In this document: one piece after another, positions 7,711-49,940 of the stretch
Layout: each line of letters begins with the position of its first letter
Numbering within the stretch: the first letter of the stretch is position 1
NCBI GenBank assembly: GCA_049437325.1
Contig: JBMTIM010000006.1
Span: forward strand, 3,453-67,452
DNA length: 64,000 nucleotides
DNA from: Acidimicrobiales bacterium
Lineage (GTDB): Bacteria > Actinomycetota > Acidimicrobiia > Acidimicrobiales > Aldehydirespiratoraceae
Reading direction: 5' to 3'
Notes under the pieces: generated by a model
Databases searched by the model: none
What the model saw: only the letters and a program-made list of their open reading frames with translations
Told to the model about the DNA's origin: nothing
Position numbers and translations under genes: made by a program

Positions 7711-8943
7711 CTACGGAAGCTCGCCGGTCAGCGTGCAGGTACCAGCCTTCCCAGCGCCGAGATCGAACAGCAGATCGTCACCCACCGCACCTCCGAAACG
7801 TGGAATCCGGACGTCGCTCCCGGGGTCGACGGCAATCGTCGAGCGCTGGCTCAGCACCTCGTAGTCATCGTCACTGTCGACGATGAGCTGGACACGAACA
7901 GCATCGGCGAAACCAGTGCCCCCCTCGGGCAGGTCGACCTGTCCGGCCGGAATGTCGAGCGCCAGCAGCAGTGCCGTCGGCCCGGCACACCCGACCGCCG
8001 GTTCACGTCCGACCGGATCGGTGCACGGCCCGTGCGTGACGGTGTCGAGCGGCCGCAGTCCCGACGTCACCACACTCGCTCGGAGGCAGGCCACATCGGC
8101 GAATCCGGTCGGTCCGACGATGACCACGTGGCCGGCACCTGCGAACTGGAACAGGGCCGCAACGAGCGAACCGGGCGGATAGGGAAAGGCGGCGAACGGG
8201 GGTGTCGTGACCCGATCCTCCACCGGACCAGCACCGCTGCGAACTGCAACGGTTTCGCTGAGTACCGTGGTCAACGCCGGTTCCGCAACGGGAGGACCAC
8301 CCTCGAGGGCGGCGACGGCCGCCGGTTCACCGGTCGTCTCGAACTGGAGCGCCCCTCGCTCCCGTGGCGGTTCGATACCGAACTCCTGGTATGCCCACCA
8401 GCCCCCGACGAGCACAACACCGGCCACGACCAGGCCAGTCACGCTCGCCACGATCCGTTGTCGCCGGCCGAGCACCAGGTTCTTCTCGACCTGTCGCTCG
8501 TCGAGTCGCTCTTGCAGCGTGAGCGGCCCGAATGCCTCGTCCCGGGCACCGCCGGCGATCAGCTCACGCCAGCGCATCTGCACATCGTCGGGCATGGCCA
8601 CCAGATGCGTCTCGAACAACTCGCCGACACCCTCTGAGTACAGCAGGAGCAGCCCGTTGCTTCGCACGTGCTCGACGGGGTCCTCCAGGTCGTAGTCGAG
8701 TTGGCGTTCTCCGGCGAGCAGATCGAAAAAACGTCGAGCAGCTGCGTCGGCTTCTGCGGCCGTGTACGACGTTCCGGCCGGCGCAACCGGCAGTCGAATC
8801 GGCCCGTCACCGGCGCGGAGAAACCCGGTGGTCACGACGAAACTGTCGGGCCGAATGTCCTCCGCCGTAGGAGGGGGCAACTGCTCGGGCAGTTCTCCGC
8901 CGTGCTCATCGGGAGCGGTGATGTCTGGGAGGTCGTGGCTCAC
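7711..8943 (-). CDS. hypothetical single-pass membrane protein
   Basis: 410-codon ORF with coding-like codon bias. It has one central TM (IVASVTGLVVAGVVLVGGWWAY). I recognise no family. Confidence 0.55.
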   Translation of the reverse strand: MSHDLPDITAPDEHGGELPEQLPPPTAEDIRPDSFVVTTGFLRAGDGPIRLPVAPAGTSYTAAEADAAARRFFDLLAGERQLDYDLEDPVEHVRSNGLLLLYSEGVGELFETHLVAMPDDVQMRWRELIAGGARDEAFGPLTLQERLDERQVEKNLVLGRRQRIVASVTGLVVAGVVLVGGWWAYQEFGIEPPRERGALQFETTGEPAAVAALEGGPPVAEPALTTVLSETVAVRSGAGPVEDRVTTPPFAAFPYPPGSLVAALFQFAGAGHVVIVGPTGFADVACLRASVVTSGLRPLDTVTHGPCTDPVGREPAVGCAGPTALLLALDIPAGQVDLPEGGTGFADAVRVQLIVDSDDDYEVLSQRSTIAVDPGSDVRIPRFGGAVGDDLLFDLGAGKAGTCTLTGELP

Positions 8944-9014: not shown

Positions 9015-11075
9015 GTGCACAACCTCGAATTCGTCCTGGCATCCGGATCTCCCCGCCGCAAGGAGCTTCTGGCCCGGCTCGACGTCCACCCAGTGGTGGA
9101 GCCCGCCGACATCGACGAGACCCCAGAGCCGGGAGAATCGGCCGTTGCCTACGTCGAGCGCCTCGCCCGCAACAAGGCGGCCTCGTCGGCAGCTCCAGGA
9201 CGCGTGGTGCTCGCAGCCGACACATCCGTCGTTCGCGATGGCGTCATCCTTGGCAAGCCGTCCGACGCTGTCGAGGCATCGTCGATGCTCCAGTCCCTTG
9301 CCAACCGTCGGCACGACGTCGTGACCGGTGTCGCCGTGGGCGTCACCAACGCCGAGGGAACCTCGGTCGTCCACTCCGCAGTCGAGGTGAGCACGGTCGA
9401 AATCGGCAACCTGCACGACGACCGGCTCGCGTGGTACGTGGCGACCGAGGAACCTGCCGACAAGGCGGGCGCCTACGGGCTCCAGGGAGCTGCAGGGCTC
9501 TTTGCCGACCGCGTCGATGGCAGTGTCACCAACATCATCGGTCTCCCGCTCCCCCTCGTCGACGACCTGTTCTCCCGCCACGATCTCGACCTCTTGGATT
9601 TCCGGAGTCGCCCAACGCCCGATCCGGTGCGAGCGATTGCCGAACTGGCACTCGACCATGTGACGAACCCACCGGGGGAAGCCGACCCGGTCATCGACTG
9701 GGGGTCACCGGAGGACCTGCTCGCTGACCTGGCCGCCACGATCGGCACCGAGTTCGCCACGCATGAGCCCGCAGCAGCGGCCGGTGACCTTGTCGCGGCG
9801 GCAGAGCGCGTCCTCGCTCGATCGGTCCACACAAACCACCCTCGCTTCATCAATCAGAACTACGCGGGAGCCGATCCCCTCGCTGTTGTGGGCGATTGGT
9901 TGGGAGCAGCCCTCAACACGGCGCACACGACCTACGAGATCGCACCCGTCTTCATGCTCATGGAGCGGGCGCTCCTCGACAAAATGGCTCGTCTCGTCGG
10001 ATGGAACCCGGATCCGGAGCAGCCGGCTGGACTCATGTGCGCAGGCGGCTCCATCGCCGGCATGCACGGACTCCAGTTGGCGCGGGCCGCCCGTGACCCA
10101 TCCTCGCTCGATCGGGGCCATGACGGGACACCGTTGCGACTGCTGGTCAGCGCCTCTGCCCACTACTCCACTGCGAAGATGGCAGCGGTCATGGGATTCG
10201 GCCGTGATGCGGTGCAGGCGATCGCAACCACGCCCGACGGCGCAATGGACATGGATGCCCTCGATGCTGCGCTGGCCGAAGGGCCGGAGGTGCTGGCGAT
10301 CGTTGCGACTGCCGGCACGACGGTGACGGGCGCCTTCGATCCGCTCGACGAGATTGCCACCCGCTGTGCCGAGCACGGCATCTGGATGCACGTCGACGGT
10401 GCGTTCGGATGCGCTGCGCTCTTCTCGCAGCGACAGCGGTGGCGTTGTGAGGGCATCGACAAGGCCGACTCCATCACCTGGAACCTTCACAAGATCGGTG
10501 GTGTCACCCAGCAGTGCTCTGTGCTCCTGGTGGCTGATCCGAGTCGACTCCATCCGACGTTCGCATCGGGTGCCGATTACCTGTTCCAGTCCGACAAGCT
10601 TTTCGGCAGGTACGACTCCGGCGACCAGAACATCCATTGCGGTCGACGCAACGACGTCTTGAAGGCGTGGTTGATGTGGAAGGGCCGCGGCGACGCCGGG
10701 ATGGCGCGCCGCATCGACCATGCGGTGGCGCTCGCCGACCACGTTCGGGCTCGACTCGAGGAGCGGGCCGACCTCGACGCCGTCGTGGCAGGTGACTTCG
10801 TCACGTCGACGTGTTTGTGGGTACCACCCGAGATGCGGCCCCTCGATCTGTCGTCGCTCACGACCGAGCAGCATGCGACGTTGCATGCGATCGCTCCCGC
10901 AGCCAAAGCGCTCATGCAGGCCCAGGGCGAAGCATTGATCGGCTACCAGCCGGTCCACGACATCAACTGCTTTCGACTGATCTTCATGAATCCCGACGTG
11001 TCCTTCGACGACGCCGACCGCCTCCTCGATCTGATCGCAGAGCACAGCGAGGCGGCTTGGCGCCTCGCCCGATGA
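9015..11075 (+). CDS. fusion protein: Maf-like nucleoside triphosphate pyrophosphatase (N-terminal) and group II PLP-dependent decarboxylase, GAD/CSAD-like (C-terminal)
   Basis: Residues ~1-195 are Maf-like: LASGSPRRKELL, AGAYGLQG, TNIIGLPL. Residues ~270-686 are decarboxylase-like: HPRFINQNYAG, TYEIAPVFMLME, DSITWNLHK (PLP lysine codon at 10491..10493), IHCGRRNDVLKAWLMW. There is no in-frame stop between the two parts. Confidence 0.85.
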   Translation: MHNLEFVLASGSPRRKELLARLDVHPVVEPADIDETPEPGESAVAYVERLARNKAASSAAPGRVVLAADTSVVRDGVILGKPSDAVEASSMLQSLANRRHDVVTGVAVGVTNAEGTSVVHSAVEVSTVEIGNLHDDRLAWYVATEEPADKAGAYGLQGAAGLFADRVDGSVTNIIGLPLPLVDDLFSRHDLDLLDFRSRPTPDPVRAIAELALDHVTNPPGEADPVIDWGSPEDLLADLAATIGTEFATHEPAAAAGDLVAAAERVLARSVHTNHPRFINQNYAGADPLAVVGDWLGAALNTAHTTYEIAPVFMLMERALLDKMARLVGWNPDPEQPAGLMCAGGSIAGMHGLQLARAARDPSSLDRGHDGTPLRLLVSASAHYSTAKMAAVMGFGRDAVQAIATTPDGAMDMDALDAALAEGPEVLAIVATAGTTVTGAFDPLDEIATRCAEHGIWMHVDGAFGCAALFSQRQRWRCEGIDKADSITWNLHKIGGVTQQCSVLLVADPSRLHPTFASGADYLFQSDKLFGRYDSGDQNIHCGRRNDVLKAWLMWKGRGDAGMARRIDHAVALADHVRARLEERADLDAVVAGDFVTSTCLWVPPEMRPLDLSSLTTEQHATLHAIAPAAKALMQAQGEALIGYQPVHDINCFRLIFMNPDVSFDDADRLLDLIAEHSEAAWRLAR

Positions 11076-11163: not shown

Positions 11164-12363
11164 GTGAGCGTTGCAGCCGATCGCCCGATGACGGCATCCG
11201 AGCCGGAGCCACCCGCCCGTCCAGGCGAGTTCGAGTCAGTCCGGATCGGATCGCTCGACGTGTGGCCACCGGTCGTCCTTGCGCCCATGGCCGGTGTCAC
11301 GAACGCCCCATTTCGCACGCTGTGCCGACGCTACGGCGCAGGGCTGTACGTCAATCAGATGATCACGGCCCGTGCGTTGGTCGAGCGACATCGCAAGAGT
11401 CTCGAACTGGCAGCGTTCGCCCCCGACGAGTCGCCCCGCTCGATCCAGCTCTACGGCACCGATCCGTATTCGATCGGTGAGGCGGCTCGGCTTCTCGTCG
11501 ACGGCCTGATCGACGGTGTACCGGTCGACCACATCGACATGAACTTCGGTTGCCCGATGAAAAAGGTCACTCGACACGGCGGCGGTGCGGCACTCCCCTG
11601 GAAACGGGAGCACTACCGCAAGATCGTGCGGGCTGCCGTGACGAACGCCGGACAGGTGCCGGTCACGGTGAAATTTCGAATTGGCATCGACAGCGAGTCG
11701 ATCACGTTCCTCGATGCAGGCAAGATCGCGGAGGACGAGGGCGCACAGGCTGTGGCGCTGCACGCTCGCACCGCCAACCAGCTCTATTCGGGTCACGCCG
11801 ACTGGAGCCGAATCTCCGAACTCAAAGAGGCGGTGACCTCGATCCCGGTGTTCGGCAACGGCGACATCTGGGAAGCCGACGACGCGCTCCGCATGATGCG
11901 CACCACCGGGTGCGACGGCGTGACCGTCGGCCGGGGGTGCCTCGGGCGGCCCTGGTTGTTCGGGGATCTCGCAGCGGTGTTCGAGGGCCGGCCCGTCCCA
12001 CCGCGACCCGATCTCGGCACCGTGCTCGACGGGATGGTCGAACACGCAGCACTGTTGTGCAACTGGATGGGCGAGGAACACGGCATTCGGGACTTCCGCA
12101 AGCACACCGGTTGGTACCTCAAAGGCTTTCCGGCCGGCGGCGAACTGCGCGCTCGTCTCAACCGCGTCGGCTCCCTCGACGAGATGCGCGACCTCGTTGG
12201 CGCGCTCGACCGCACCATCCCATTTCCCGACGGCGGCATGCGCATGGTGCGGGGCCATTCGGGCTCACCAAAAGCGGTTCATCTGCCCGACGGTTGGCTC
12301 GATGCCCGCGACGACGAGGTTGCGATGCCCAGGGGGGCCGAGCAACTGGTCAGTGGCGGCTGA
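11164..12363 (+). CDS. dus: tRNA-dihydrouridine synthase
   Basis: VLAPMAGVTNAPFRTLCRRYGAGLYVNQMI, DMNFGCP and ALHARTANQLYSGHADW are typical Dus motifs. Confidence 0.9.
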   Translation: MSVAADRPMTASEPEPPARPGEFESVRIGSLDVWPPVVLAPMAGVTNAPFRTLCRRYGAGLYVNQMITARALVERHRKSLELAAFAPDESPRSIQLYGTDPYSIGEAARLLVDGLIDGVPVDHIDMNFGCPMKKVTRHGGGAALPWKREHYRKIVRAAVTNAGQVPVTVKFRIGIDSESITFLDAGKIAEDEGAQAVALHARTANQLYSGHADWSRISELKEAVTSIPVFGNGDIWEADDALRMMRTTGCDGVTVGRGCLGRPWLFGDLAAVFEGRPVPPRPDLGTVLDGMVEHAALLCNWMGEEHGIRDFRKHTGWYLKGFPAGGELRARLNRVGSLDEMRDLVGALDRTIPFPDGGMRMVRGHSGSPKAVHLPDGWLDARDDEVAMPRGAEQLVSGG

Positions 12364-12381: not shown

Positions 12382-12948
12382 CTAGAAGTCGATGCCTTTC
12401 TTTGCCGCGATCCCGGCGTCGTAGGCGTGTTTGCGATTCTCGATCACGCTCACCGTGTCGGCGAGCTCGATCATCCAATCGGGCGCGTCGCGGCCGGTCA
12501 GAACGAGGGAGACGCGCGCCGGGCGGTTGCGAAACGTCTGCTCGACCTCAGCGGCGTCGAGCCAGCCCCAATTCAGTGGATAGGTGATCTCGTCGAAGAT
12601 CACCAGTCGGTGCTCGCCTGCGTCGACGAGAGACTTTCCGTGACGCCACGCTTCTTTCGCCTCGGCTTCGTCCTTGGTGAGGTCGTCGGAGTCCCAGGTG
12701 AATCCGTCACCCAGCGACCAGAAGTCGATACCGAGTTGCGGAGCCATGATCTGCTCACCGGTCACCCAGTCGTCGCTCTTGAGAAATTGCACGACCGCCA
12801 CGGGCCAGTTGCGTGCCCGCGCCCGCAGTGCCACCCCGAACGCAGCCGACGACTTTCCTTTCCCGTCACCGGTGTTGACGAGCACGAGACTGCTTGCAGT
12901 TCGAAGGCCGTCCGGCCGGGGGTCGTCTTGCAGCGGCACATCGGTCAT
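12382..12948 (-). CDS. cobO: cob(I)yrinic acid a,c-diamide adenosyltransferase
   Basis: P-loop NTGDGKGKSSAAFGVALRA, VVQFLKS and DEITYPLNWGWL match CobA/CobO/BtuR. It is the last gene of the riboswitch-led operon. Confidence 0.9.
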   Translation of the reverse strand: MTDVPLQDDPRPDGLRTASSLVLVNTGDGKGKSSAAFGVALRARARNWPVAVVQFLKSDDWVTGEQIMAPQLGIDFWSLGDGFTWDSDDLTKDEAEAKEAWRHGKSLVDAGEHRLVIFDEITYPLNWGWLDAAEVEQTFRNRPARVSLVLTGRDAPDWMIELADTVSVIENRKHAYDAGIAAKKGIDF

Positions 12949-14765: not shown

Positions 14766-15644
14766 TCAGTCGGTGTGAGCCGACTCGACCGCAGCGGCTA
14801 TGGCCTCGACGAAGTCGACGAGACGCGGACCCCATCGGGAAACGACGTCGTCGTCGAGTTCGACCACGTTGCCGTTCTGTACCGCCGTGAGCTGGTCCCA
14901 GCCTGGCCGCGCTGCGACCGTTGCTGCGCTCTGCGCACAACATCGCGTGTCGGCAAGGAAGATCACGTCGGGGTCGGCGTCGAGGAGATACTCGTCACTG
15001 AGTTGGGGATAGCCGAAGGCGGCGCCGTCTGCGTCAGCCGCATCAGCGACATTGGTCAGCCCGAAGAGTGCATACACCGCGCCGATGAAGGTGGAGCTGG
15101 TGACGCTGTAGAGGGTGTTGTCGAGTTCGTGGTAGTAGGTCAGTGCCGACGACTGGGGGGCGTCGTCGACCAGGCCGTCGATGGCCGTCCGCATGGCGTC
15201 GACCACCACCGCCGCCTCGGGGGCGAATCCTGTCGCGTCGCCGACCAGTTGGATCTGGCTGTAGACCTCTTCGATCGCCGACGGCGCGGCGATGACCAGC
15301 ACCGACACGCCGGCGGCTTCCAGACCGCTGCGGAGGTCGTCGTTCCAGTCCATGACGACCAAGTCGGGCTCGAAGGAAAGGATTGCCTCGATGTTGGGGT
15401 CCCAACCCGAGAGATCGGTGAGTGGTGTTCCTTCCGGGTAGTAGGAGAACTCGTCGACGGCGACAACGAGATCGCCGGCTCCCACCGCGTAGAGCATCTC
15501 GGTGCCGGTCGGCGTGATGGACACGATTCGTTCAGCCGGCGCCGAATCGACCGCCATCTCGTCGGCCGGTTCGGCGTCGCCGCAGGCGGCGCCGAGAAGC
15601 GCCATGACAAGCAGCAGAGCCAGGGATGTGACCAATCTTTTCAC
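14766..15644 (-). CDS. ABC transporter periplasmic-type substrate-binding lipoprotein (BtuF/helical-backbone class)
   Basis: GTG at 15644 is preceded by AGGAGGA. The lipoprotein signal is VKRLVTSLALLLVMALLGAACG. It is the first gene after the cobalamin riboswitch. Confidence 0.85.
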   Translation of the reverse strand: MKRLVTSLALLLVMALLGAACGDAEPADEMAVDSAPAERIVSITPTGTEMLYAVGAGDLVVAVDEFSYYPEGTPLTDLSGWDPNIEAILSFEPDLVVMDWNDDLRSGLEAAGVSVLVIAAPSAIEEVYSQIQLVGDATGFAPEAAVVVDAMRTAIDGLVDDAPQSSALTYYHELDNTLYSVTSSTFIGAVYALFGLTNVADAADADGAAFGYPQLSDEYLLDADPDVIFLADTRCCAQSAATVAARPGWDQLTAVQNGNVVELDDDVVSRWGPRLVDFVEAIAAAVESAHTD

Positions 15645-15689
15645 GAGGGTTCCTCCTGTGGCTCGAGTCCGGCTGGCACGAGCGCTCGG

Positions 15690-15846
15690 AAACCCCGATC
15701 GCACGAGCCGTCCCTTTTCCTCGAGGGTCGGTTCGTCGTCCACTCCAGGCGACCGGACTCGTCCTACCCACCGAAGTGGACGGGCATCACCGTTGCGGGA
15801 CAGTTCCGGGATCTCACCGGATTCGCTGCATGTGAACGGGCGAAGC
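15690..15846 (-). promoter_or_regulatory. cobalamin (B12) riboswitch
   Basis: The minus-strand RNA reads AAUCCGGUGAGAUCCCGGAACUGUCCCGCAACGGUGA (15787..15823), then CCACUUCGGUGGG, then the B12-box-like GAGUCCGGUCGCCUGG (15745..15760). It lies upstream of a B12-type importer operon. Boundaries are approximate. Confidence 0.78.
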
Positions 15847-16902
15847 CTAGCGACCAAGAGCGTCGAGACGCTCGATCGCCTCGGCGACGATACGCCCGAT
15901 CAGTTCGTCGCAGCTCGGGAGGTCGTCGACGACGCCGACGCATTGACCGGTCGGGAGGATGCCGACATCGATCTGCCCGTCGACCATCGTCGCCCGAGTC
16001 AACATCGGCGCGTTGGCCGCCATCGCCAGCTGTGACCACGTCAGGCCCTGGCGCTTGCGCATCGCGAACCCCTCCTTGACCAGGTCACCCAACGCCGTGT
16101 CGGTCAGCTTGCGGAACCGGAGCGCATTGAGTGCAGCTCGCGGAAACCGCAGCAGCCCAGCCCGCTCGAGCGACTCGACCATCTCGGTGCGGACGACTCG
16201 CTGGGGGGCACCATCGATCGCCGTCGAAACGACGGTCCCGGTGACGGGAGTGGCGAGGTAGGCCTGCTTGACCGTGTCGGGAACCTCCGAATCTGCGGTC
16301 AGCAGGAACCGAGTACCCATCGCAATGCCATCAGCACCCCATGCCAGCGCTGCAGCAAGCCCACGACCGTCGTGAAAACCGCCGGCTGCGATGACGGGAA
16401 TCTCGACTGCATCGAGAATCTGCGGCAACAGCAACGAGGTGGGAACCGTGCCGGTGTGGCCACCGCCTTCCCCGCCCTGACAGAGCACTGCGTCGACACC
16501 CCACGCCGCCACTTTCTCGGCGTGCCGCCGGGCGCCGACGGTCGGGACCACCACCAGCCCGTGCTCCTTGAGTTTCGCGACCATGTCGGGGCGCGGCGCC
16601 TGCGCAAACGACGCAACTCGGACTTCGGCCCGGATGAGATGGTCGACCCGCTGATCGATGTCGACGGCATCGGTGCGCAGGTTGACCCCGAAGGGACATT
16701 CGGTGCGACGCTGCACGTCCTCGATCGCCGTAACCATCTCGTCGAAGGTCATCGTGGCAGCAGCGAGAATGCCGAGACCGCCAGCGTTGGCCGTGCCCAC
16801 CACGAGGGACGGACCCGCGACCCAGCCCATTCCGGTCTGCACGATCGGGAATCGAACGCCGAACAATTCGGTTGCACGGGTTTGGAGTCGTGGATCGACC
16901 AT
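15847..16902 (-). CDS. nitronate monooxygenase / NAD(P)H-dependent flavin oxidoreductase (NMO family)
   Basis: FPIVQTGMGWVAGPSLVVGTANAGGLGILAA and QGGEGGGHTG are NMO/2-nitropropane dioxygenase motifs. Confidence 0.88.
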   Translation of the reverse strand: MVDPRLQTRATELFGVRFPIVQTGMGWVAGPSLVVGTANAGGLGILAAATMTFDEMVTAIEDVQRRTECPFGVNLRTDAVDIDQRVDHLIRAEVRVASFAQAPRPDMVAKLKEHGLVVVPTVGARRHAEKVAAWGVDAVLCQGGEGGGHTGTVPTSLLLPQILDAVEIPVIAAGGFHDGRGLAAALAWGADGIAMGTRFLLTADSEVPDTVKQAYLATPVTGTVVSTAIDGAPQRVVRTEMVESLERAGLLRFPRAALNALRFRKLTDTALGDLVKEGFAMRKRQGLTWSQLAMAANAPMLTRATMVDGQIDVGILPTGQCVGVVDDLPSCDELIGRIVAEAIERLDALGR

Positions 16903-22383: not shown

Positions 22384-23283
22384 GTGACAACGAAGAGCAC
22401 GTCGGGAACGGATGCACTGCCGCCAGTGCTCGAGTTCGTGGTAGGCCATGCCCCCATGGAGATCCATCGCCTGACCGGCGCGCTCGGAGCCGAAATCACC
22501 GGTGTCGACCTTGCCGATGCCCTGACTGACGAGACGGTCGCAGAGATTCGGGCGGCCTTCAACGAGCATCACGTGCTGTTCTTTCGCGGCCAGCACTGGA
22601 CGCCAGAGCAGCAGATCGCGTTCGGACAACGTTTTGGCGAGCTCGACACCCACCCGTTTGTCGAGGGCAACGAGGCGTACCCGGAGATCCTCGACGTCGT
22701 CACCGACCCCGACGATGTCGTCAACTTCGGCGGGGGTTGGCACACCGACGTGACCTTCCTCCCCGAGCCCGACCTCGGTTCCATCCTCTATGCCGTCGAG
22801 GTTCCCGAACACGGTGGCGACACCCTCTTCGCCAACCAGCACGCTGCCTACGATGCGATGAGTGACGGGTTCAAAGGCCTCCTCGACGGTCTCCACGCCA
22901 CCCACTCTGCGGGGCAGCAGTATCAGGAGGGCGGCTACTCGACCCGCTCCAAGCAGATGCGCACCAAGAACCCCGAGCTGGCTGCCGAGCATGTCGTCCA
23001 TCCGGTGATCCGTACCCACCCGGAGAACGGACGCAAAGCGTTGTACGTCAACCGGGCGTTCACGACCGGCATCGTCGGTCTGCACCCGCACGAGTCGACC
23101 GCGCTGCTTCGCATCCTCCACGAGCAGACCACCCGTGAGGCCTTCACCTGCCGATTTCGCTGGGAGCCTGGCTCGGTGGCCATGTGGGACAACCGCTCCG
23201 TGCAGCACTACGCGATGTTCGACTACGCCGGGAAGCGGCGACACATGCGCCGCGTGACCATCAAGGGCGACACGCCGGTCTGA
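22384..23283 (+). CDS. TauD/TfdA family Fe(II)/2-oxoglutarate dioxygenase
   Basis: GAEITGVDL, WHTDVTFLPEPDLGSILYAVEVPEHGGDTLFAN (HxD facial triad), WDNRSVQH. The start is uncertain: GTG 22384 or ATG 22456. Confidence 0.9.
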   Translation: MTTKSTSGTDALPPVLEFVVGHAPMEIHRLTGALGAEITGVDLADALTDETVAEIRAAFNEHHVLFFRGQHWTPEQQIAFGQRFGELDTHPFVEGNEAYPEILDVVTDPDDVVNFGGGWHTDVTFLPEPDLGSILYAVEVPEHGGDTLFANQHAAYDAMSDGFKGLLDGLHATHSAGQQYQEGGYSTRSKQMRTKNPELAAEHVVHPVIRTHPENGRKALYVNRAFTTGIVGLHPHESTALLRILHEQTTREAFTCRFRWEPGSVAMWDNRSVQHYAMFDYAGKRRHMRRVTIKGDTPV

Positions 23284-41163: not shown

Positions 41164-42000
41164 TCAGTGTCGCCGATGCTGCAGCACAGCGCTCATCGTG
41201 TCGGCCAGACGACGGTTGCCCTTCACGTCGTGCGCACGCAGAATCCGGCAGCCGAGCGCGATCCCCAGGGCATGAGCACCGAAGGTGACCTCGCGTCGGT
41301 CGTCGACCTCGGTGCCCACAAGCTCACCGAGGAAGCCCTTGTTCGATGCAGAGAGAAAAACTGGAAAGCCGAGCGCAACCAGATCGTCGCTGTGGTGGAG
41401 CAACTCGGTCGACATCATCGGGGTTTTTCCCAAGTCGAGACCGGCATCGACCATGATCCGCTCACGAGCAACCCCGGCGGCTCGCGCCTGCTCCGCCCGC
41501 ACCCGCAGGAAGTCGGTGACCTCGCGGCGCACGTCGCCGTAGATCGGATGCGGATCGGGGATACGGGGGCCGATCCGAACGTGGGTCGCAACAACCGATG
41601 CACCATGGCGGACAGCCACAGGAAGGAAGTCTGGATCGGCAAACCCACTGATGTCGTTCCCGATGCACGCACCGGCCCGGCACGATTCGTCGAAGACCGA
41701 GGCGCGGAACGTGTCGACCGAGATCGGCAGGTCGAATCGGGACCGGAGCGCCTCGACTGCAGGGACGACTCGGTCCAACTCCTCTTGCACAGTGACTTCA
41801 GGACCGGGTCCGGCCTTCGAACCTCCGACGTCGAGGAAGTCCGCGCCCTCGTCGACGAGTTGCTCAGCCTTGGCGAGAAAGTCGTCGAACGCCCAGTACT
41901 GACCGCCGTCGTAGAAGGAATCCGGCGTGCGGTTGAGAATGCCCATCACGAGCGCCCGCGTCGTGATGTCGAACCGGGTGGTGCCGAGATCCACGAACAT
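41164..42000 (-). CDS. folP: dihydropteroate synthase family protein
   Basis: VMGILNRTPDSFYDGG, DFLDVGG and ISVDT match the pterin-binding DHPS fold. Confidence 0.88.
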   Translation of the reverse strand: MFVDLGTTRFDITTRALVMGILNRTPDSFYDGGQYWAFDDFLAKAEQLVDEGADFLDVGGSKAGPGPEVTVQEELDRVVPAVEALRSRFDLPISVDTFRASVFDESCRAGACIGNDISGFADPDFLPVAVRHGASVVATHVRIGPRIPDPHPIYGDVRREVTDFLRVRAEQARAAGVARERIMVDAGLDLGKTPMMSTELLHHSDDLVALGFPVFLSASNKGFLGELVGTEVDDRREVTFGAHALGIALGCRILRAHDVKGNRRLADTMSAVLQHRRH

Positions 42001-42027
42001 CGGCGCCGACCCTAGCGCTTGATCGAA

Positions 42028-43107
42028 TCAGCCGGAGGCTCCACCGAACAACGACATCGGGTCGTCGGCCCCGCCTCCGACAACTGCCCGCAGGTCTGAG
42101 TTGGCGGCACCAGCGAACGAGTCGAGATCGAGTTGAACACGAATCTCGGCGGAGGCCGAGGCCAGACCCTCGTCGATCGGAATGCCGGTGCCGTCGGCCA
42201 CACGGACCAGCCCAGAGAACGCGGCGACGGTTGCCGCTGCCTGCGCAGCGCCATCCATGCCGACGCTTGCGATCAGGGCCCGCCGTGACTCAGCGAGCGG
42301 AGCGCCCCGCACTGCGGCCTCGGCAAAGGCGAGAAGTTCGGCTCCGCCGGCGATTCCGCTCTCGGCTGGATCCCCCGAACCGATGGCCGTGTCGAGATCG
42401 ACCTCGACTTCCATCGCGTCACTGCTCGCACGGAGCAGCGTCGTATGGGCAGTCGTTCAATAGAAACATTCGTTCATCGCTGCCACCCTCGCTGCCACGA
42501 GTTCGACCTGCGGGCGCGACAACGGGGTGGTCCAGACGAGCTCGTCGAACCCTGCGGCCGAGTACATCGGACGCACGAGCGTGTAGAAGGTCGTGTTCGC
42601 GCTCGGTACCTGGCTCAGCGCACGAGCGACATTCGCAAATGGAAACGGTTCGAGCATCTTGACGTGGGCGCCGATGTCTCCGAGTCCGTCCGGGGTCAGG
42701 CGCGACGCCTCACCGGGTGTGGTCGCCGGGCTGATCGGTTCGACGTCGGCACCGACCGCGTCGGCGAAGAGACGCAAGGCAACGGCAACGGCGGTGGTAC
42801 CGACGAGCTCCACGTAGGGACCCTCTCCCAGTTCAGCGATCCGTTCGGCGGCCCACGCCGCATCGACGGATCCCGGCTCACATGCGATGCGATCGATGAC
42901 CGCGCACGCCGACCGCCCAAGGGTGCTGTTCGCAACGGGCAGATCGTGATTCCACGGTGCAACGTGGCGCTGTCGGCTCCGAGCATCGGCTCGCGCGACG
43001 ATCGAGCCGATTGCGTCGGCCTCGAACCACGTACCACTCCTGCCGAGCCGCGTTCGGGTCTCCTCGATTGCATCTGCGTAGTCGGACCCGACCGAGATCA
43101 TGGCCAT
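42028..43107 (-). CDS. AhpD/carboxymuconolactone-decarboxylase-family protein with in-frame UGA (selenocysteine) at 42457..42459
   Basis: Two same-frame ORFs are separated by a single TGA. Read-through gives ...VAAMNECFY-U-TTAHTTLL..., the family redox signature CxxC(x)3H with U in place of the second Cys. The ATG at 43107 is preceded by GGAGG. Confidence 0.7.
42420..42440 (-). promoter_or_regulatory. candidate SECIS hairpin for the AhpD-like UGA
   Basis: On the minus strand, CGCUGCUC-CGUGC-GAGCAGUG forms 8 pairs including one G-U. The stem starts 16 nt after the UGA and the GU-containing apical loop starts 24 nt after it. Confidence 0.45.
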
Positions 43108-44888
43108 GCCACCTCCTCGACCCCATCGTTGCACGGCGTCGTGCCGGCAGGACAGACGACCAAGCGCGCCTCGTCGCCTGGCTGCAGTCGCACGACAAGG
43201 CCAGCGAAACGTCGCACCGTGCCTCTCTGCACCGTCGATGCGCCAGGCACCCGATGCATGGGCGGTGCAAGAATCGTCTCGGTGCCATAGCGATCGACGA
43301 GGGAGACCACGGCGAACGCATCAGCGGCGTCTCCGTCGGTGGCAACAATGGCATCGACCCGTCGAACTCCCGCCTTCCGCACTCGTTCGACGACGTCGTC
43401 GGGCCGGTGCGGGTCGTCGAGCACCAGGACGGTGAACCCACCCGACACAATCGACGTCACCCCTGCTCCGACCAACGATCGGCCTTGGGGTGGCTCCGGG
43501 ACCGCTGCGATCGCAGCGCCGACAACCACACCGAGCGTCGCCAGTGCACACAGCCGACTCCGTCGGCCACCGCAGACGAGGCCGACCACGCCTCCTGCGG
43601 TGACGAGCAACGCCACGGGTCCCAGCATCGCGGCCGGTGCAAGTGCGGACCGGTGGGCCACCCAACGCACCCAGGTGACGAGTGCCTCCGTCGGCCAATG
43701 CACGAGCTCTGCCACCGGTCCGCCGGCAACGCCGGCGAGCAGCCCTGCCGTGCAACCCCACACCATGATCGGACCGGATGCGGGACCGGCCAGAAGGTTG
43801 GCCGGCAGGCTTGCCAGGGGCAGCGGGCCGAAGGTGAACACGAGGAGCGGCGACACCGCCAGTTGGGCTGCGATCGTTGTTGCGGCAGCGGTCCGGACGA
43901 ACGATGGACCCCGCAGCTGAGCAGCAAGCGGTTGCGAACACCAGACGATGCCCGCCGTGGCGGCAACCGACAGACGGAACGCGAGCACGTGGACGAGGAA
44001 GGGATCGATCACGACAAGGGTGGCAACGGCAACCGAGAGTCCGCGCCGCCCGTCGACCGGCGTGCCCATCGCGGCGGCCCCAAGGGCCACCCCTGCCATC
44101 GCAACGGCCCGCAAGACCGACGGTTCGAAGCGGGTGAGCAGCGCGAAGAATGCGAGCGCGCCGAACAGCACGACCAACCGAGAGCCGGGGCGAAAGCGGC
44201 CGACGAGCGGCATCAGCACCGCGATGACGAACGCAACGTTCTGACCCGAAACCACGAGGAGGTGACCGAGACCCGCCGCTCGGAAGTCGTCGGCGGTGAC
44301 CGCCGACTGGGCCCGATCATCACCGATCACCATTCCCAGAAAAATCGCGCGATCGTCGCGGTCGAGCTCCGCTGCGCCATCACCGAGCACGCGCCGCACC
44401 CGATTGGCCATCCGGGCGACAGGAGAGCCGGCTTGGGATCCGAAGATCGCGTCGACACTGATCGTTCCGACCTCGTGCCGCCACCGCGCCCACCCATCTC
44501 GGTCGGTGACGGGGCGGAATCGACCCGCGATCCGAAGTTGCTCACCGGCGAGTGCATCATCGAGGTGACTCGCCACTCGGCCATGCGCAGCAATCGACAC
44601 GCGGTGTCCGTCCCAGCGTGCACCAGCCCGCATCCCGGCAGCCCCGAACGGATGCGGATCGGATGTCAACGTCACCCACGTGTCGACCGGACCGGCGTCG
44701 GGCGGATCGAGGCCCGCAAGGGCCCGGCTACCGAGGAAGGAGCAGAGCACGGCCGCCGCCAGTGCGAACGCAAGCCAGGTGCGCCGGGTCAGCGCCACCA
44801 CCACTGCGATACCAACAACTGCGCCAGGCACCGGCCACATCGCCACCGCACCGACGGTGGCCCCGATCGCCACCGCATGCGCCCTCAC
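43098..44888 (-). CDS. comEC: ComEC/Rec2 family DNA internalisation protein
   Basis: Polytopic competence domain (GLGHLLVVSGQNVAF). It lies directly downstream of comEA with a 4-nt overlap. Confidence 0.85.
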   Translation of the reverse strand: MRAHAVAIGATVGAVAMWPVPGAVVGIAVVVALTRRTWLAFALAAAVLCSFLGSRALAGLDPPDAGPVDTWVTLTSDPHPFGAAGMRAGARWDGHRVSIAAHGRVASHLDDALAGEQLRIAGRFRPVTDRDGWARWRHEVGTISVDAIFGSQAGSPVARMANRVRRVLGDGAAELDRDDRAIFLGMVIGDDRAQSAVTADDFRAAGLGHLLVVSGQNVAFVIAVLMPLVGRFRPGSRLVVLFGALAFFALLTRFEPSVLRAVAMAGVALGAAAMGTPVDGRRGLSVAVATLVVIDPFLVHVLAFRLSVAATAGIVWCSQPLAAQLRGPSFVRTAAATTIAAQLAVSPLLVFTFGPLPLASLPANLLAGPASGPIMVWGCTAGLLAGVAGGPVAELVHWPTEALVTWVRWVAHRSALAPAAMLGPVALLVTAGGVVGLVCGGRRSRLCALATLGVVVGAAIAAVPEPPQGRSLVGAGVTSIVSGGFTVLVLDDPHRPDDVVERVRKAGVRRVDAIVATDGDAADAFAVVSLVDRYGTETILAPPMHRVPGASTVQRGTVRRFAGLVVRLQPGDEARLVVCPAGTTPCNDGVEEVAWP

Positions 44889-45568
44889 GGGCGGACAAGG
44901 TCACGAATGGCCTCGAGCTTCACCGGACCGATCCCGGCCACCTCGAGGAGATCTTCGACGGTGCGAAACGATCCCTCTCTGTCACGGTGTTCGACGATCG
45001 CTGCCGCAAGGGCCGGCCCGATTCCGGGGAGCGTCTCCAGTTGCGCGACGCTTGCTCGAGAAAGAACGATCAACCCGGTGGTGTTTCCGTCTGCGAAGGC
45101 GCCCGACGTGCCTGCCCCACCGGTCACCACATCCGGTGCCGCCTCACCGATCAGTGGGATCCAGATCCGCTGACCGTCCGCCACCTGCTGGGCCAGATTG
45201 ACCCGACTCCGATCGGCGTTGTTGCCCAAGCCGCCCGCTGCTTCGACGGCATCGATGACTCTGCTCCCGACCGTCACCTCATGGACCCCAGGTCGCACCA
45301 CAGCTCCGTCGACATGAACAACCACCACAGCTGGCCCAGAGGTGGTGGATGACGAGAGCGCAGGGACATCGGCGACCATCGGCAGCACCGTTTCGACCGG
45401 TGGTGGCGGTGGTCGAAGCGCCCACCATGCCCCAAGGCCGACGGCAAGCACGCCAACGGCCCCGATGGCAACACTCGCAGGCCGGAGCCCGAGGCGGTCG
45501 GCGAGCAGTACCGGCGCGCGACGCCACGAGAAGTCGTCGAATTCGAAATGGTCGTCAGCGTCCAACAC
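44885..45568 (-). CDS. comEA: ComEA family DNA-binding protein
   Basis: One N-terminal TM, a SLBB-like middle region, and C-terminal helix-hairpin-helix LETLPGIGPALAAAIVEHR...LLEVAGIGPVKLEAI. Confidence 0.85.
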   Translation of the reverse strand: MLDADDHFEFDDFSWRRAPVLLADRLGLRPASVAIGAVGVLAVGLGAWWALRPPPPPVETVLPMVADVPALSSSTTSGPAVVVVHVDGAVVRPGVHEVTVGSRVIDAVEAAGGLGNNADRSRVNLAQQVADGQRIWIPLIGEAAPDVVTGGAGTSGAFADGNTTGLIVLSRASVAQLETLPGIGPALAAAIVEHRDREGSFRTVEDLLEVAGIGPVKLEAIRDLVRP

Positions 45569-45641
45569 GCCCTCCGGTCAGCCGGGGCTGTGGGGGAAGT
45601 GAAGGGGCCGAGCAGCCTGATGCTCTCAGGCCATCAGACGG

Positions 45642-46343
45642 TCAGAACAGCGCAGCACTCAGTTTTCTGCGCCACTCGGCGGTACGCGGATCATCCGCCC
45701 CGAGGACTTCGAGCAGGTCGACGAACTTCTGTCGGTCGTCGTCATTGACCTTCACCGTCGCAAGAAGGGTCGTCAGGGTCGCGTCGATGTCGGTGACCGG
45801 CTCGCCGCTGGTGCGCGCCACAGCCCGCAGACGCCGGGTCTCGGGCGTCTCGGGAATCTTGTCGAGCAGGGCAAGGCCTTGGTCGACCTGACCTTCATCG
45901 ATCAGCGCTGCGGCGAGCGCGGTGAGGACGTCGGGATTGTCGGGCTCGAGTGCGTACGCAGCGTTGAGCGACTCGACATCACCGATCTCGAGCAGGCGCT
46001 CGACTTCGTTTTGTTCCACGGTCGGCAAGAGCTTCTCGACGAACTCGCGCACCTGCGCTTCACCTTGCGCCCCCATGAAGCCGTCGACGACCTGACCATC
46101 CTTCATGGCGTACACGGCCGGAATCGACTGGACTTGGAAAGCCTGCGCCACGCTCGGATTGGCATCGACGTCGACCTTTGCCAGTTCGACCTGGCCGTTC
46201 GTGTCACCGATCACCCTGTCGAGGATCGGGCCGAGCTGCTTGCACGGACCGCACCATTCAGCCCACAGATCGATCACGACAGGAACATGGTGTGACCGCT
46301 CGATCACGGCGGTCTCGAACGTTGCGTCGGTTACATCAGCCAT
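45642..46343 (-). CDS. thioredoxin-domain plus TPR protein (YbbN-like co-chaperone)
   Basis: VVIDLWAEWCGPCKQLGPIL thioredoxin motif with a helical TPR-like C-terminus. The start is taken at MADVTD. Confidence 0.85.
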   Translation of the reverse strand: MADVTDATFETAVIERSHHVPVVIDLWAEWCGPCKQLGPILDRVIGDTNGQVELAKVDVDANPSVAQAFQVQSIPAVYAMKDGQVVDGFMGAQGEAQVREFVEKLLPTVEQNEVERLLEIGDVESLNAAYALEPDNPDVLTALAAALIDEGQVDQGLALLDKIPETPETRRLRAVARTSGEPVTDIDATLTTLLATVKVNDDDRQKFVDLLEVLGADDPRTAEWRRKLSAALF

Positions 46344-48945: not shown

Positions 48946-49018
48946 GGGGCATTAGCTCAGTTGGTAGAGCGCATCCATGGCATGGATGAGGTCAGGAGTT
49001 CAATTCTCCTATGCTCCA
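48946..49018 (+). tRNA. tRNA-Ala (anticodon GGC)
   Basis: GGGGCAT/ATGCTCC acceptor with the G3-U70 identity pair, anticodon stem CATCC/GGATG with loop ATGGCAT, and T arm AGGAGTTCAATTCTCCT. Confidence 0.92.
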
Positions 49019-49079
49019 CGCCGATCGAAACGGGGCCTCGTCGGAGGTCCCGTTTCTCGTTTCGTGGCAGGCTTGTCCG

Positions 49080-49940
49080 ATGGGCTCTCTGCCGATGATC
49101 ACGCCGCTCGCCGGTACGACCTTCGGGTCGACCGTCACGCAGATCGACGTCCGTGCCCTCGATCGAGACTCGTTCGCGAATCTCTACGCCACCTGGCTCG
49201 ACCGGGGTCTGTTGATCTTTCCCGGTCAGTTCCTCGACAACGCCGAACAGGACGAGTTCGCCCAGCGTTTCGGGGTGCTCGAGTTCGGGGCTGCTCCGCT
49301 CAGCAACGTTCGCAGCGACGGATCTGTGCGGCCGACCGACGGCTCCGACGACATGATGCAGGTCCTCATCGGCAACATGGGTTGGCATCAGGACTCGACG
49401 TACATGCCGGTCCAAGCCAAGGGAGCTGTGTTCTCCGCAGAGGTCGTGCCGGACACGGGCGGCGCAACCGGCTTCGCCGACACTGCCGCTGCCTATGCCA
49501 GCCTCGAGCAGGCCATCAAGGACCGAATCGCCGGCCTGCGGGCCCGACATTCGCTGTACCACTCGCAGGCCCAAGTAGGTCATGCGGGAACGTCGGCCCA
49601 ATACAGCGGCTACGGGTTCCACGACGGGCCAGTCTCGATTCGGCCGATCGTGAAACGTCATCCCGAGACAGGGAGCCGATCATTGACGATCGGCCGGCAT
49701 GCCTATGACATCGACGGTCTGGAAGCAGCCGAATCTGACGAACTGCTGGCGAGTCTCGTCGAGTTTGCGACCGAACCGAGGTACACCTACCACCACCAGT
49801 GGACTGCGGGTGACGTCGTCGTGTGGGACAACCGTCGACTCCTCCATCGGGCAACGCCCTGGCCCTTTGATCAACCTCGGGTGATGTGGCACACCAGGAT
49901 CGCCGGCGACCCCGTCACCGAGTCGGCAGACTCGGACTGA
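49080..49940 (+). CDS. TauD/TfdA family Fe(II)/2-oxoglutarate dioxygenase (second paralogue)
   Basis: GWHQDSTYMPVQAKGAVFSAEVVPDTGGATGFAD (HxD) and WDNRRLLHRA. The start is at MGSLPM, downstream of the tRNA. Confidence 0.85.
   Translation: MGSLPMITPLAGTTFGSTVTQIDVRALDRDSFANLYATWLDRGLLIFPGQFLDNAEQDEFAQRFGVLEFGAAPLSNVRSDGSVRPTDGSDDMMQVLIGNMGWHQDSTYMPVQAKGAVFSAEVVPDTGGATGFADTAAAYASLEQAIKDRIAGLRARHSLYHSQAQVGHAGTSAQYSGYGFHDGPVSIRPIVKRHPETGSRSLTIGRHAYDIDGLEAAESDELLASLVEFATEPRYTYHHQWTAGDVVVWDNRRLLHRATPWPFDQPRVMWHTRIAGDPVTESADSD

Follow-up and report, generated by a model that had tools for sequence, protein, structure and literature searches.

The stretch of DNA analysed here (64 kb on contig JBMTIM010000006.1 of an Acidimicrobiales bacterium, assembly GCA_049437325.1, G+C about 65%; hereafter the window) carries a gene in which a Maf nucleotide pyrophosphatase and a group II pyridoxal phosphate (PLP) decarboxylase are encoded in one open reading frame (ORF). 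Upstream lies a divergent conserved gene, with SRAP and HIT genes further upstream of this syntenic site, and the tRNA dihydrouridine synthase gene dus follows downstream (Table 1). A previous reading of the window, made from its letters alone (the sequence-only reading), had described a single ORF with no stop or frame change between the two halves. This holds: the ORF is uninterrupted, and its codon-position G+C periodicity (high at first, low at second and high at third positions) continues along it and across the junction. The motifs quoted there (SGSPRR, AGAYGLQG, TNIIGLPL, HPRFINQ, TYEIAPVF, NLHK and IHCGRRND) are all found in the translation, and the PLP lysine, K493, had been placed exactly.

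Table 1. Features of the window, states of the fused-gene locus and the sulfonate cluster of related loci
Feature	Position	Strand	Remarks
Fused maf-decarboxylase gene	9015..11075	+	GTG start; 686 amino acids; stop codon included; two Pfam domains; full-length homologues
Maf domain, YhdE subfamily	9015..9611	+	Residues 1-199; Asp69 at 9219..9221; SGSPRR at 9042..9059
Junction	9585..9629	+	Residues ~191-205; Maf tail ...DLLDFRSR straight into decarboxylase N-terminus PTPDPVRAIAEL...
Group II PLP decarboxylase, CSAD/GADL1/GAD-like	9612..11072	+	Residues 200-686; Lys493 at 10491..10493; Tyr283 at 9861..9863
Divergent conserved gene	7711..8943	-	410 amino acids; no Pfam match; marks the syntenic site; upstream in states A, B, C and E
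dus (tRNA dihydrouridine synthase)	11164..12363	+	Pfam Dus E 3.1e-86; downstream of the fused gene
TauD-family gene 1	22384..23283	+	284 bits against a taurine dioxygenase cut-off of 313, just below
TauD-family gene 2	49011..49940	+	137 bits against the same cut-off of 313, far below
tRNA-Ala	48946..49019		Overlaps the first possible start of TauD-family gene 2
Cobalamin riboswitch	15731..15873	-	Score 33.8 bits (gathering score 31.5)
Locus state A			Fused maf-decarboxylase gene followed by dus; L007-L019, L087-L089, L091, L093-L095
Locus state B			maf (200 amino acids), decarboxylase and dus separate; L025, L027, L029, L098-L100
Locus state E			maf then dus directly, without decarboxylase; L090, L092, L096, L097
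Locus state C			Decarboxylase alone, without maf or dus; L005, L065
Sulfonate cluster with stand-alone decarboxylase	L006 3613..15180		Same contig as L035; also in L031, L034, L039, L048, L051, L061, L069, L073

Two complete enzyme halves in one reading frame

Both halves are complete, as the sequence-only reading had said of the decarboxylase: the Pfam Maf domain covers residues 6-186 (E 1.8e-51) and Pyridoxal_deC residues 256-600 (E 3.4e-66), and the catalytic residues of both are invariant. The N-terminal half scores 174.9 bits against PF02545 (cut-off 27) and 131 bits against TIGR00172, the NCBIfam Maf subfamily model (cut-off 117.15), and matches E. coli YhdE (4p0e, E 3.7e-34) and B. subtilis Maf (1ex2) in the PDB. 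The Maf signature S-R-E-K-D-K, which in YhdE is Ser10, Arg13, Glu33, Lys52, Asp70 and Lys82 (Tchigvintsev et al., PMC3899018), is found here as S10, R15, E35, K54, D69 and K81. The motif that sets the YhdE subfamily apart, R-T-Q (Arg12, Thr71 and Gln153 in YhdE) as against W-Q-E in YceF (PMC3899018), appears as R14, T70 and Q157. In 32 fusion proteins (that of the window and 31 homologues) all these residues are invariant wherever the position is present. The domain thus resembles E. coli YhdE and B. subtilis Maf (BSU28050) in signature, in the R-T-Q motif and in an end-to-end alignment with 4p0e and 1ex2, and differs from them in being covalently joined to a 487-residue PLP decarboxylase. YhdE-type Maf proteins prefer modified pyrimidine nucleoside triphosphates (NTPs; PMC3899018), and by homology we predict that the Maf half hydrolyses dTTP, UTP, CTP and modified pyrimidine NTPs to the nucleoside monophosphate and pyrophosphate. 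Within the window, tblastn and an ORF survey found no second maf.

The C-terminal half belongs to the group II decarboxylases (PF00282, 224 bits against a cut-off of 27). Its best PDB matches are human and mouse CSAD (E 8.6e-96 for 2jis and 4e-95), followed by GAD67 (E 2.5e-91), GADL1 (E 1.4e-88) and then GAD65. A Foldseek comparison with the PDB also ranks CSAD first, with 33-37% identity to CSAD, GADL1 and GAD in the structural alignments, and found no solved chain that holds Maf and decarboxylase together. None of H383, D461, K493, Y522 and R654 varies among the 32 fusion proteins; from the fold and the structure alignment, D461 is taken as the aspartate to the pyridine nitrogen of PLP. H383, K493, Y522 and R654 correspond to the catalytic H191, K305, Y335 and R466 of mouse CSAD (bioRxiv 10.1101/2020.09.25.308866). 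The likeness to animal CSAD, GADL1 and GAD65/67 spans the entire fold (E 1e-96 to 1e-87) and includes the PLP lysine, the ring-stacking histidine, the aspartate, the catalytic-loop tyrosine and the carboxylate-binding arginine, whereas the protein described here is bacterial and has an N-terminal Maf.

The sequence-only reading had placed a linker of about 70 residues between the halves; this proved wrong. Alignments with stand-alone Maf relatives end at residues 195-199, those with stand-alone decarboxylase relatives begin at residues ~200-208, and homology to the CSAD and GAD structures begins at residues 197-221, so that the two domains abut almost end to end, essentially without a linker, and residues 200-255 are the N-terminal segment of the decarboxylase fold. 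Residues 170-270 are gapless in the alignment of the 32 proteins. In an AlphaFold2 model of the fused protein (alignment A1; mean pLDDT 84.9, pTM 0.75) residues 181-220 have pLDDT 80-95, and helices span 179-188, 193-196 and 204-217. The ratio of nonsynonymous to synonymous substitution rates (dN/dS), calculated by the Nei-Gojobori method on nine fused-gene pairs, amounts to 0.10-0.21 in Maf, 0.04-0.21 in residues 191-255 and 0.06-0.13 in the decarboxylase. Purifying selection acts on Maf, junction and decarboxylase alike, and neither half is decaying. No in-frame start with a Shine-Dalgarno sequence was found near the junction; an internal start yielding a free decarboxylase was considered and rejected, the in-frame TTG/GTG codons at residues 194, 205 and 216 having no properly spaced Shine-Dalgarno sequence. 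Rfam and tRNA scans gave nothing near the fused gene.

The fusion recurs across genomes. A search over 5.8 billion proteins returned the full Maf-decarboxylase architecture in about 31 clusters (at 90% identity), from JGI, ENA, NCBI and Logan assemblies and with 57-100% identity to the window protein. These proteins are 684-736 amino acids long, and those with a name go only by "Maf family nucleotide pyrophosphatase" or "septum formation protein Maf". Six of the clusters start after SGSPRR; the L015 ORF includes the motif, so that where checked the shorter start is a gene-calling effect. Among GTDB species representatives, 13 carry the fused form. Their labels are Acidimicrobiales, Acidimicrobiaceae, Actinomycetota or 'Candidatus Microthrix', and several are Tara Oceans metagenome-assembled genomes (MAGs); one of the 13, an independent MAG (L007), encodes a protein 97% identical to that of the window. 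Seven further fused loci come from metagenome contigs. Orthologous loci therefore do not always encode two separate genes. All fused loci lie at the same chromosomal site, and on clustering at 50% identity all fused proteins collapse into one representative. We also looked for Maf-decarboxylase fusions of independent origin: among the best 150 of 1.84 billion cluster representatives only one carries this fusion, and it is that of the query's own cluster.

States of the locus and origin of the fusion

At the fused-gene site dus lies downstream of the fusion wherever the locus DNA reaches, directly so in 11 of the 13 GTDB species. In L014 and L015 minus-strand genes are inserted between the two; judged by eye, the inserts comprise PntA/PntB-like transhydrogenase genes plus one hypothetical gene, and they are uninformative. 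Related genomes show the site in other states (Table 1): maf, decarboxylase and dus as separate genes (state B), maf followed directly by dus (state E), or the decarboxylase alone (state C). In state B the same genes flank the site, and maf and decarboxylase occupy different frames, the stop of maf overlapping the start of the decarboxylase gene. The overlap reads ATGA in L027 and L025 and GTGA in L029, and lies exactly at the junction point of the fused proteins. Separate adjacent genes at the orthologous locus, as expected of a Rosetta-stone pair, are thus found in all state B loci. The Maf and decarboxylase functions are separable in close relatives, because relatives at the same site have maf-decarboxylase-dus, maf-dus or the decarboxylase alone, and this separability argues against an obligatory biochemical coupling.

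The phylogeny of the locus was followed with neighbour-joining trees, which are crude and carry no support values. The trees of the divergent hypothetical protein and of Maf unite all fused loci in one clade, with state E near it and state B more basal; the decarboxylase tree places states A and C in one group. Since all fused loci form one clade, the trees indicate a single fusion event.

Pairing of maf with dus extends well beyond this site, where it is present in states A, B and E. Among 66 more distant metagenome loci (L101-L166), maf adjoins dus on the same strand in 36, with gaps of at most 165 bp; the order is dus then maf in 32 and maf then dus in four. Of the remaining loci, 14 lack dus within a flank long enough to judge, and 16 do not extend far enough to decide. 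None of the 66 has a decarboxylase. It is dus, and not the decarboxylase, that forms the old and conserved partner of maf. Our literature searches found no paper on the association of maf and dus.

Despite the crude trees the picture is coherent. We propose that maf and dus are an old pair, between which the decarboxylase gene would have entered and become translationally coupled to maf. A frame-merging change would then have removed the ATGA/GTGA overlap once and produced one reading frame, in an ancestor from which one clade of mostly marine, uncultured Acidimicrobiia descends, while other lineages may have lost one component or the other.

Candidate substrate of the decarboxylase half

The NCBIfam equivalog models of named enzymes are not reached by the decarboxylase half: RhbB gives 158 bits against a cut-off of 900, PanP 129 against 606 and MfnA 58 against 299. 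We compared selectivity positions, which we take to be, besides Phe94 of CSAD, its Ser114 and Tyr116 (positions reportedly given by Agnello et al. 2013; they fit the alignment). In CSAD, Phe94 blocks glutamate, and the position is Ser in GAD and Tyr in GADL1 (bioRxiv 10.1101/2020.09.25.308866). The equivalent position is aromatic here (Tyr283) and is Phe across most of the wider Acidimicrobiia family. The full triad of the window protein is Y283/A303/T305, that of the fusion clade Y(F)/T(A)/A(T,S), mostly Y/T/A. It is not the strict CSAD triad, with which it has only the aromatic first position in common, nor the S/N/F type of GAD65/67, having Tyr283 instead of Ser and Ala/Thr instead of Asn/Phe; with the Y/S/Y of GADL1 it agrees at Tyr283 and differs at the other two positions. 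An aromatic first residue is thus what links it to CSAD (Phe94) and GADL1 (Tyr), and Ala/Thr at the other positions what separates it from both CSAD/GADL1 (Ser/Tyr) and GAD (Asn/Phe). Because the triad matches no characterised enzyme, it does not establish a substrate assignment.

The genomic context of relatives offers a second line of evidence. Stand-alone relatives (47-53% identity) lie in sulfonate clusters of about 10 species, together with genes for Xsc (sulfoacetaldehyde acetyltransferase, 1003.7 bits against a cut-off of 676.4), Pta, TauA/TauC-like ABC transporter components, a class III aminotransferase and an iron alcohol dehydrogenase. The decarboxylase gene of L006 stands between the permease gene and pta and overlaps both. 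Fusions are found among more distant relatives as well, with cysteine dioxygenase (CDO_I) in P0257 and with a PALP domain in P0133, P0136 and P0250. The CDO_I and PALP (cysteine/cysteate synthase-like) fusions resemble complete two-step modules for hypotaurine or taurine. Given the CSAD-like structure matches, the aromatic residue at position 283, and the sulfonate clusters and fusions of the relatives, a short acidic sulfur amino acid is the favoured substrate by analogy, probably cysteate or cysteine sulfinate; aspartate would be the main alternative, and glutamate is unlikely. The most likely products would accordingly be taurine from L-cysteate or hypotaurine from cysteine sulfinate, with beta-alanine from aspartate possible.

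In bacteria, CSAD-like decarboxylases are known, reportedly with a bacterial CSAD next to a cysteine dioxygenase (Agnello et al. 2013, cited in PMC8153620). The half described here belongs to the same enzyme lineage as the prokaryotic taurine-pathway decarboxylases, some of its relatives being fused to CDO_I or placed in Xsc/Pta/TauABC-like clusters; unlike them, the fused gene has no CDO, Xsc or sulfonate transporter gene nearby. On a bacterial cysteate decarboxylase in Acidimicrobiia our literature searches returned nothing.

Two further observations concern the stand-alone relatives. At about 22 loci (L022, L028, L032, L037, L042-L047 and others; L006 1028..3480) the decarboxylase gene often adjoins a HisD-like gene, which scores 413 bits against the 243.8 of the HisD model; the partner aminotransferase is DegT-like, not HisC-like. 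Since the HisD model is passed, we make no claim for this gene as a sulfopropanediol or cysteinolate dehydrogenase; it may belong to a his operon or encode a dehydrogenase of amino-alcohols or sulfonates. P0121 (844 amino acids, 51% identity) has a 360-residue N-terminal extension without a Pfam domain, probably an over-called start.

The sequence-only reading had pointed to two TauD-family genes elsewhere in the window as perhaps related to the fusion. The genes are there, but we dropped the link: they lie 11 and 38 kb away, no TauD gene is found downstream of the fusion in the fused locus L001, and the tauD family has expanded strongly in marine Acidimicrobiia, to 16 paralogues in MAG I_MB219_1 (bioRxiv 10.1101/2024.12.10.627767), our locus L021. 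A tRNA-Ala gene extends over the earliest candidate start of the second TauD gene, so that this gene must truly begin further downstream.

Elsewhere in the window, the cobalamin riboswitch adjoins the substrate-binding gene (14766..15857) of a group of Peripla_BP_2/FecCD/ABC transporter genes; cobO (12382..12948) lies downstream of these, and related loci also have cobU, cobT and cobS there. The region 42000..45650 holds no ORF with normal codon-position G+C; its AT skew is unusually high (0.14-0.17), and its longest ORFs, 42957..45173 (+) and 43098..44888 (-), overlap on opposite strands. Rfam gave no match in this region.

Independent activities or a functional link

The reading we favour, with moderate confidence, is that the gene encodes a bifunctional protein that arose from fused, translationally coupled operon neighbours and whose activities are independent. 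The two halves would each work on their own; the fusion would only fix their co-expression at 1:1, and would have become structurally entrenched after fixation. The two enzyme activities, the substrate and the absence of coupling are inferred. The sequence-only reading had taken the fusion as the sign of an unexplored link between nucleotide and amine metabolism; this finds no support, the two genes being separable at the same site and the old partner of maf being dus.

Several points weigh against this reading. Adjacent genes that are themselves translationally coupled, as in the unfused state, are typical of functionally related functions. The junction is conserved beyond what a neutral fusion would need (no indel in 32 proteins, low dN/dS, an ordered model), which could mean a functional interaction of the two domains. 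A further copy of maf may exist elsewhere in the genomes that carry the fused gene. As to the enzyme itself, the decarboxylase half reaches no NCBIfam equivalog, and its selectivity triad is unlike those of CSAD (F/S/Y), GADL1 (Y/S/Y) and GAD (S/N/F). The sulfonate context belongs to stand-alone paralogues or orthologues at about 50% identity and not to the fused gene, whose own neighbours are housekeeping genes. The history proposed rests in addition on crude trees that lack support values.

The strongest competitor, which we consider possible although rather unlikely, is that both activities serve one pathway and that the fusion channels or co-regulates them. One candidate is that taurine, hypotaurine or beta-alanine is used in a uridine or tRNA modification, with Maf removing the free nucleotide and dus as the third member; another is that pyrimidine NTP turnover by Maf and aspartate decarboxylation both feed the beta-alanine/CoA pool; a third is a general connection between Maf and PLP. 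Coupling would fit the stop-start overlap of the unfused genes, the gapless, ordered and selected junction, and the retention of the fusion down to 57% identity, but close relatives at the same site keep maf and dus only, or the decarboxylase without either, and of the more than 60 species with this decarboxylase the majority lack a neighbouring maf. Likewise, the preference of YhdE-type Maf for modified pyrimidine NTPs (PMC3899018), with the gene of a tRNA-modifying enzyme coming next, would suit coupling, while the minus-strand inserts of L014 and L015 part the decarboxylase from dus. Fusions of Maf with another PLP-binding protein, the YggS-like PF01168 (P0097 and P0103), speak for coupling as well; on the other side, no second fusion with the decarboxylase appeared among the best 150 of 1.84 billion representatives, and no known reaction joins the two chemistries.

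P0097 and P0103, in which Maf is joined to the YggS-type protein, come from Myxococcales and another metagenome. Maf is also joined to an RDD domain in P0089 and P0114, from Planctomycetota and another MAG.

Less probable still is the recruitment of one half as a non-catalytic or regulatory module, for instance Maf as a nucleotide sensor or dimerisation module gating the decarboxylase, with the housekeeping role of Maf being taken, for example, by another genomic copy. In the obligate dimers formed by group II decarboxylases the N-terminal segment of each subunit packs against the other, so that an N-terminal appendage would be well placed to affect assembly, and the junction is ordered in the model. 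None of the catalytic and selectivity residues of Maf varies, among them Asp69, the general base, and Glu35, a metal ligand; this speaks against a pure binding module, as such a module would not require them, and the dN/dS of Maf (0.10-0.21) is typical of an enzyme. A second maf may exist elsewhere in these genomes, although the window has none.

We give only a slim chance to a three-way link of maf, decarboxylase and dus, in which the amine would serve an undescribed bacterial uridine or tRNA modification, analogous to the mitochondrial taurinomethyl-uridine, and Maf would clear modified UTP or dihydro-UTP. A variant of it would be an unrecognised general link of Maf-type NTPases with PLP enzymes, as in the Maf-YggS fusions; in E. 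coli, yggS lies in an operon with the Maf-like NTPase gene rdgB.

Finally, we considered an artefact (a missed stop, a frameshift or a chimeric assembly joining two genes). A single-base assembly error could mimic a fusion in any one contig, because fused and unfused relatives differ at the junction by only a one-base frame relation, and P0173 may be the opposite case, a fused lineage appearing split. The artefact is effectively refuted by the same frame in independent JGI, ENA, NCBI and Logan assemblies, in the 13 species representatives and in seven further metagenome contigs, by the conserved amino-acid sequence of the junction peptide, whose dN/dS is far under 1, and by the unbroken codon periodicity. 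P0173 is a 206-residue stand-alone Maf, 63% identical to the Maf domain of the window (A2 alignment; 64% in the representative search). It tracks the L016-type fused sequence up to ...LDLLSFQTPII, then diverges and stops, and is either a lineage in which the fusion has split or the product of a frameshift error in the contig.

The combination had been noted as not known from characterised proteins, and our literature searches indeed found no description of a Maf-decarboxylase protein; databases label it as Maf only. The closest parallel is human ASMTL, one of several eukaryotic proteins in which Maf is fused to another enzyme (PMC3899018). ASMTL is the only case described of an N-terminal YhdE-like Maf followed by an unrelated small-molecule enzyme domain (PMC3899018), and its structure 2p5x was matched in the PDB. 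Its partner domain is O-methyltransferase-like and not a PLP decarboxylase, the kingdom differs and the origin is independent. As in other Rosetta-stone fusions of overlapping operon neighbours, a 4-base stop-start overlap lies at the joining point, and the present gene is a new instance of that class. It is a new domain architecture made from two well-known families and restricted to one clade.

If the activities are indeed independent, the locus would offer a clean, datable example of how a 4-base overlap becomes a stable bifunctional protein, with the four locus states (maf-dus, maf-decarboxylase-dus, fused, decarboxylase alone) still extant in related genomes, and it would caution against taking each domain fusion as a functional link. 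The wide adjacency of maf and dus suggests that YhdE-type Maf may clear dihydrouridine-derived nucleotides. For the Acidimicrobiia, the stand-alone genes in Xsc/Pta/TauABC-like clusters suggest a route from cysteate or cysteine sulfinate through taurine and sulfoacetaldehyde to acetyl-phosphate. Both of these observations are perhaps of more use than the fusion itself. Because the records of the fused protein name Maf only, a decarboxylase of the taurine, hypotaurine or beta-alanine type would be hidden from metabolic reconstructions, and this concerns abundant marine Acidimicrobiia already noted for their heavy use of organosulfonates.

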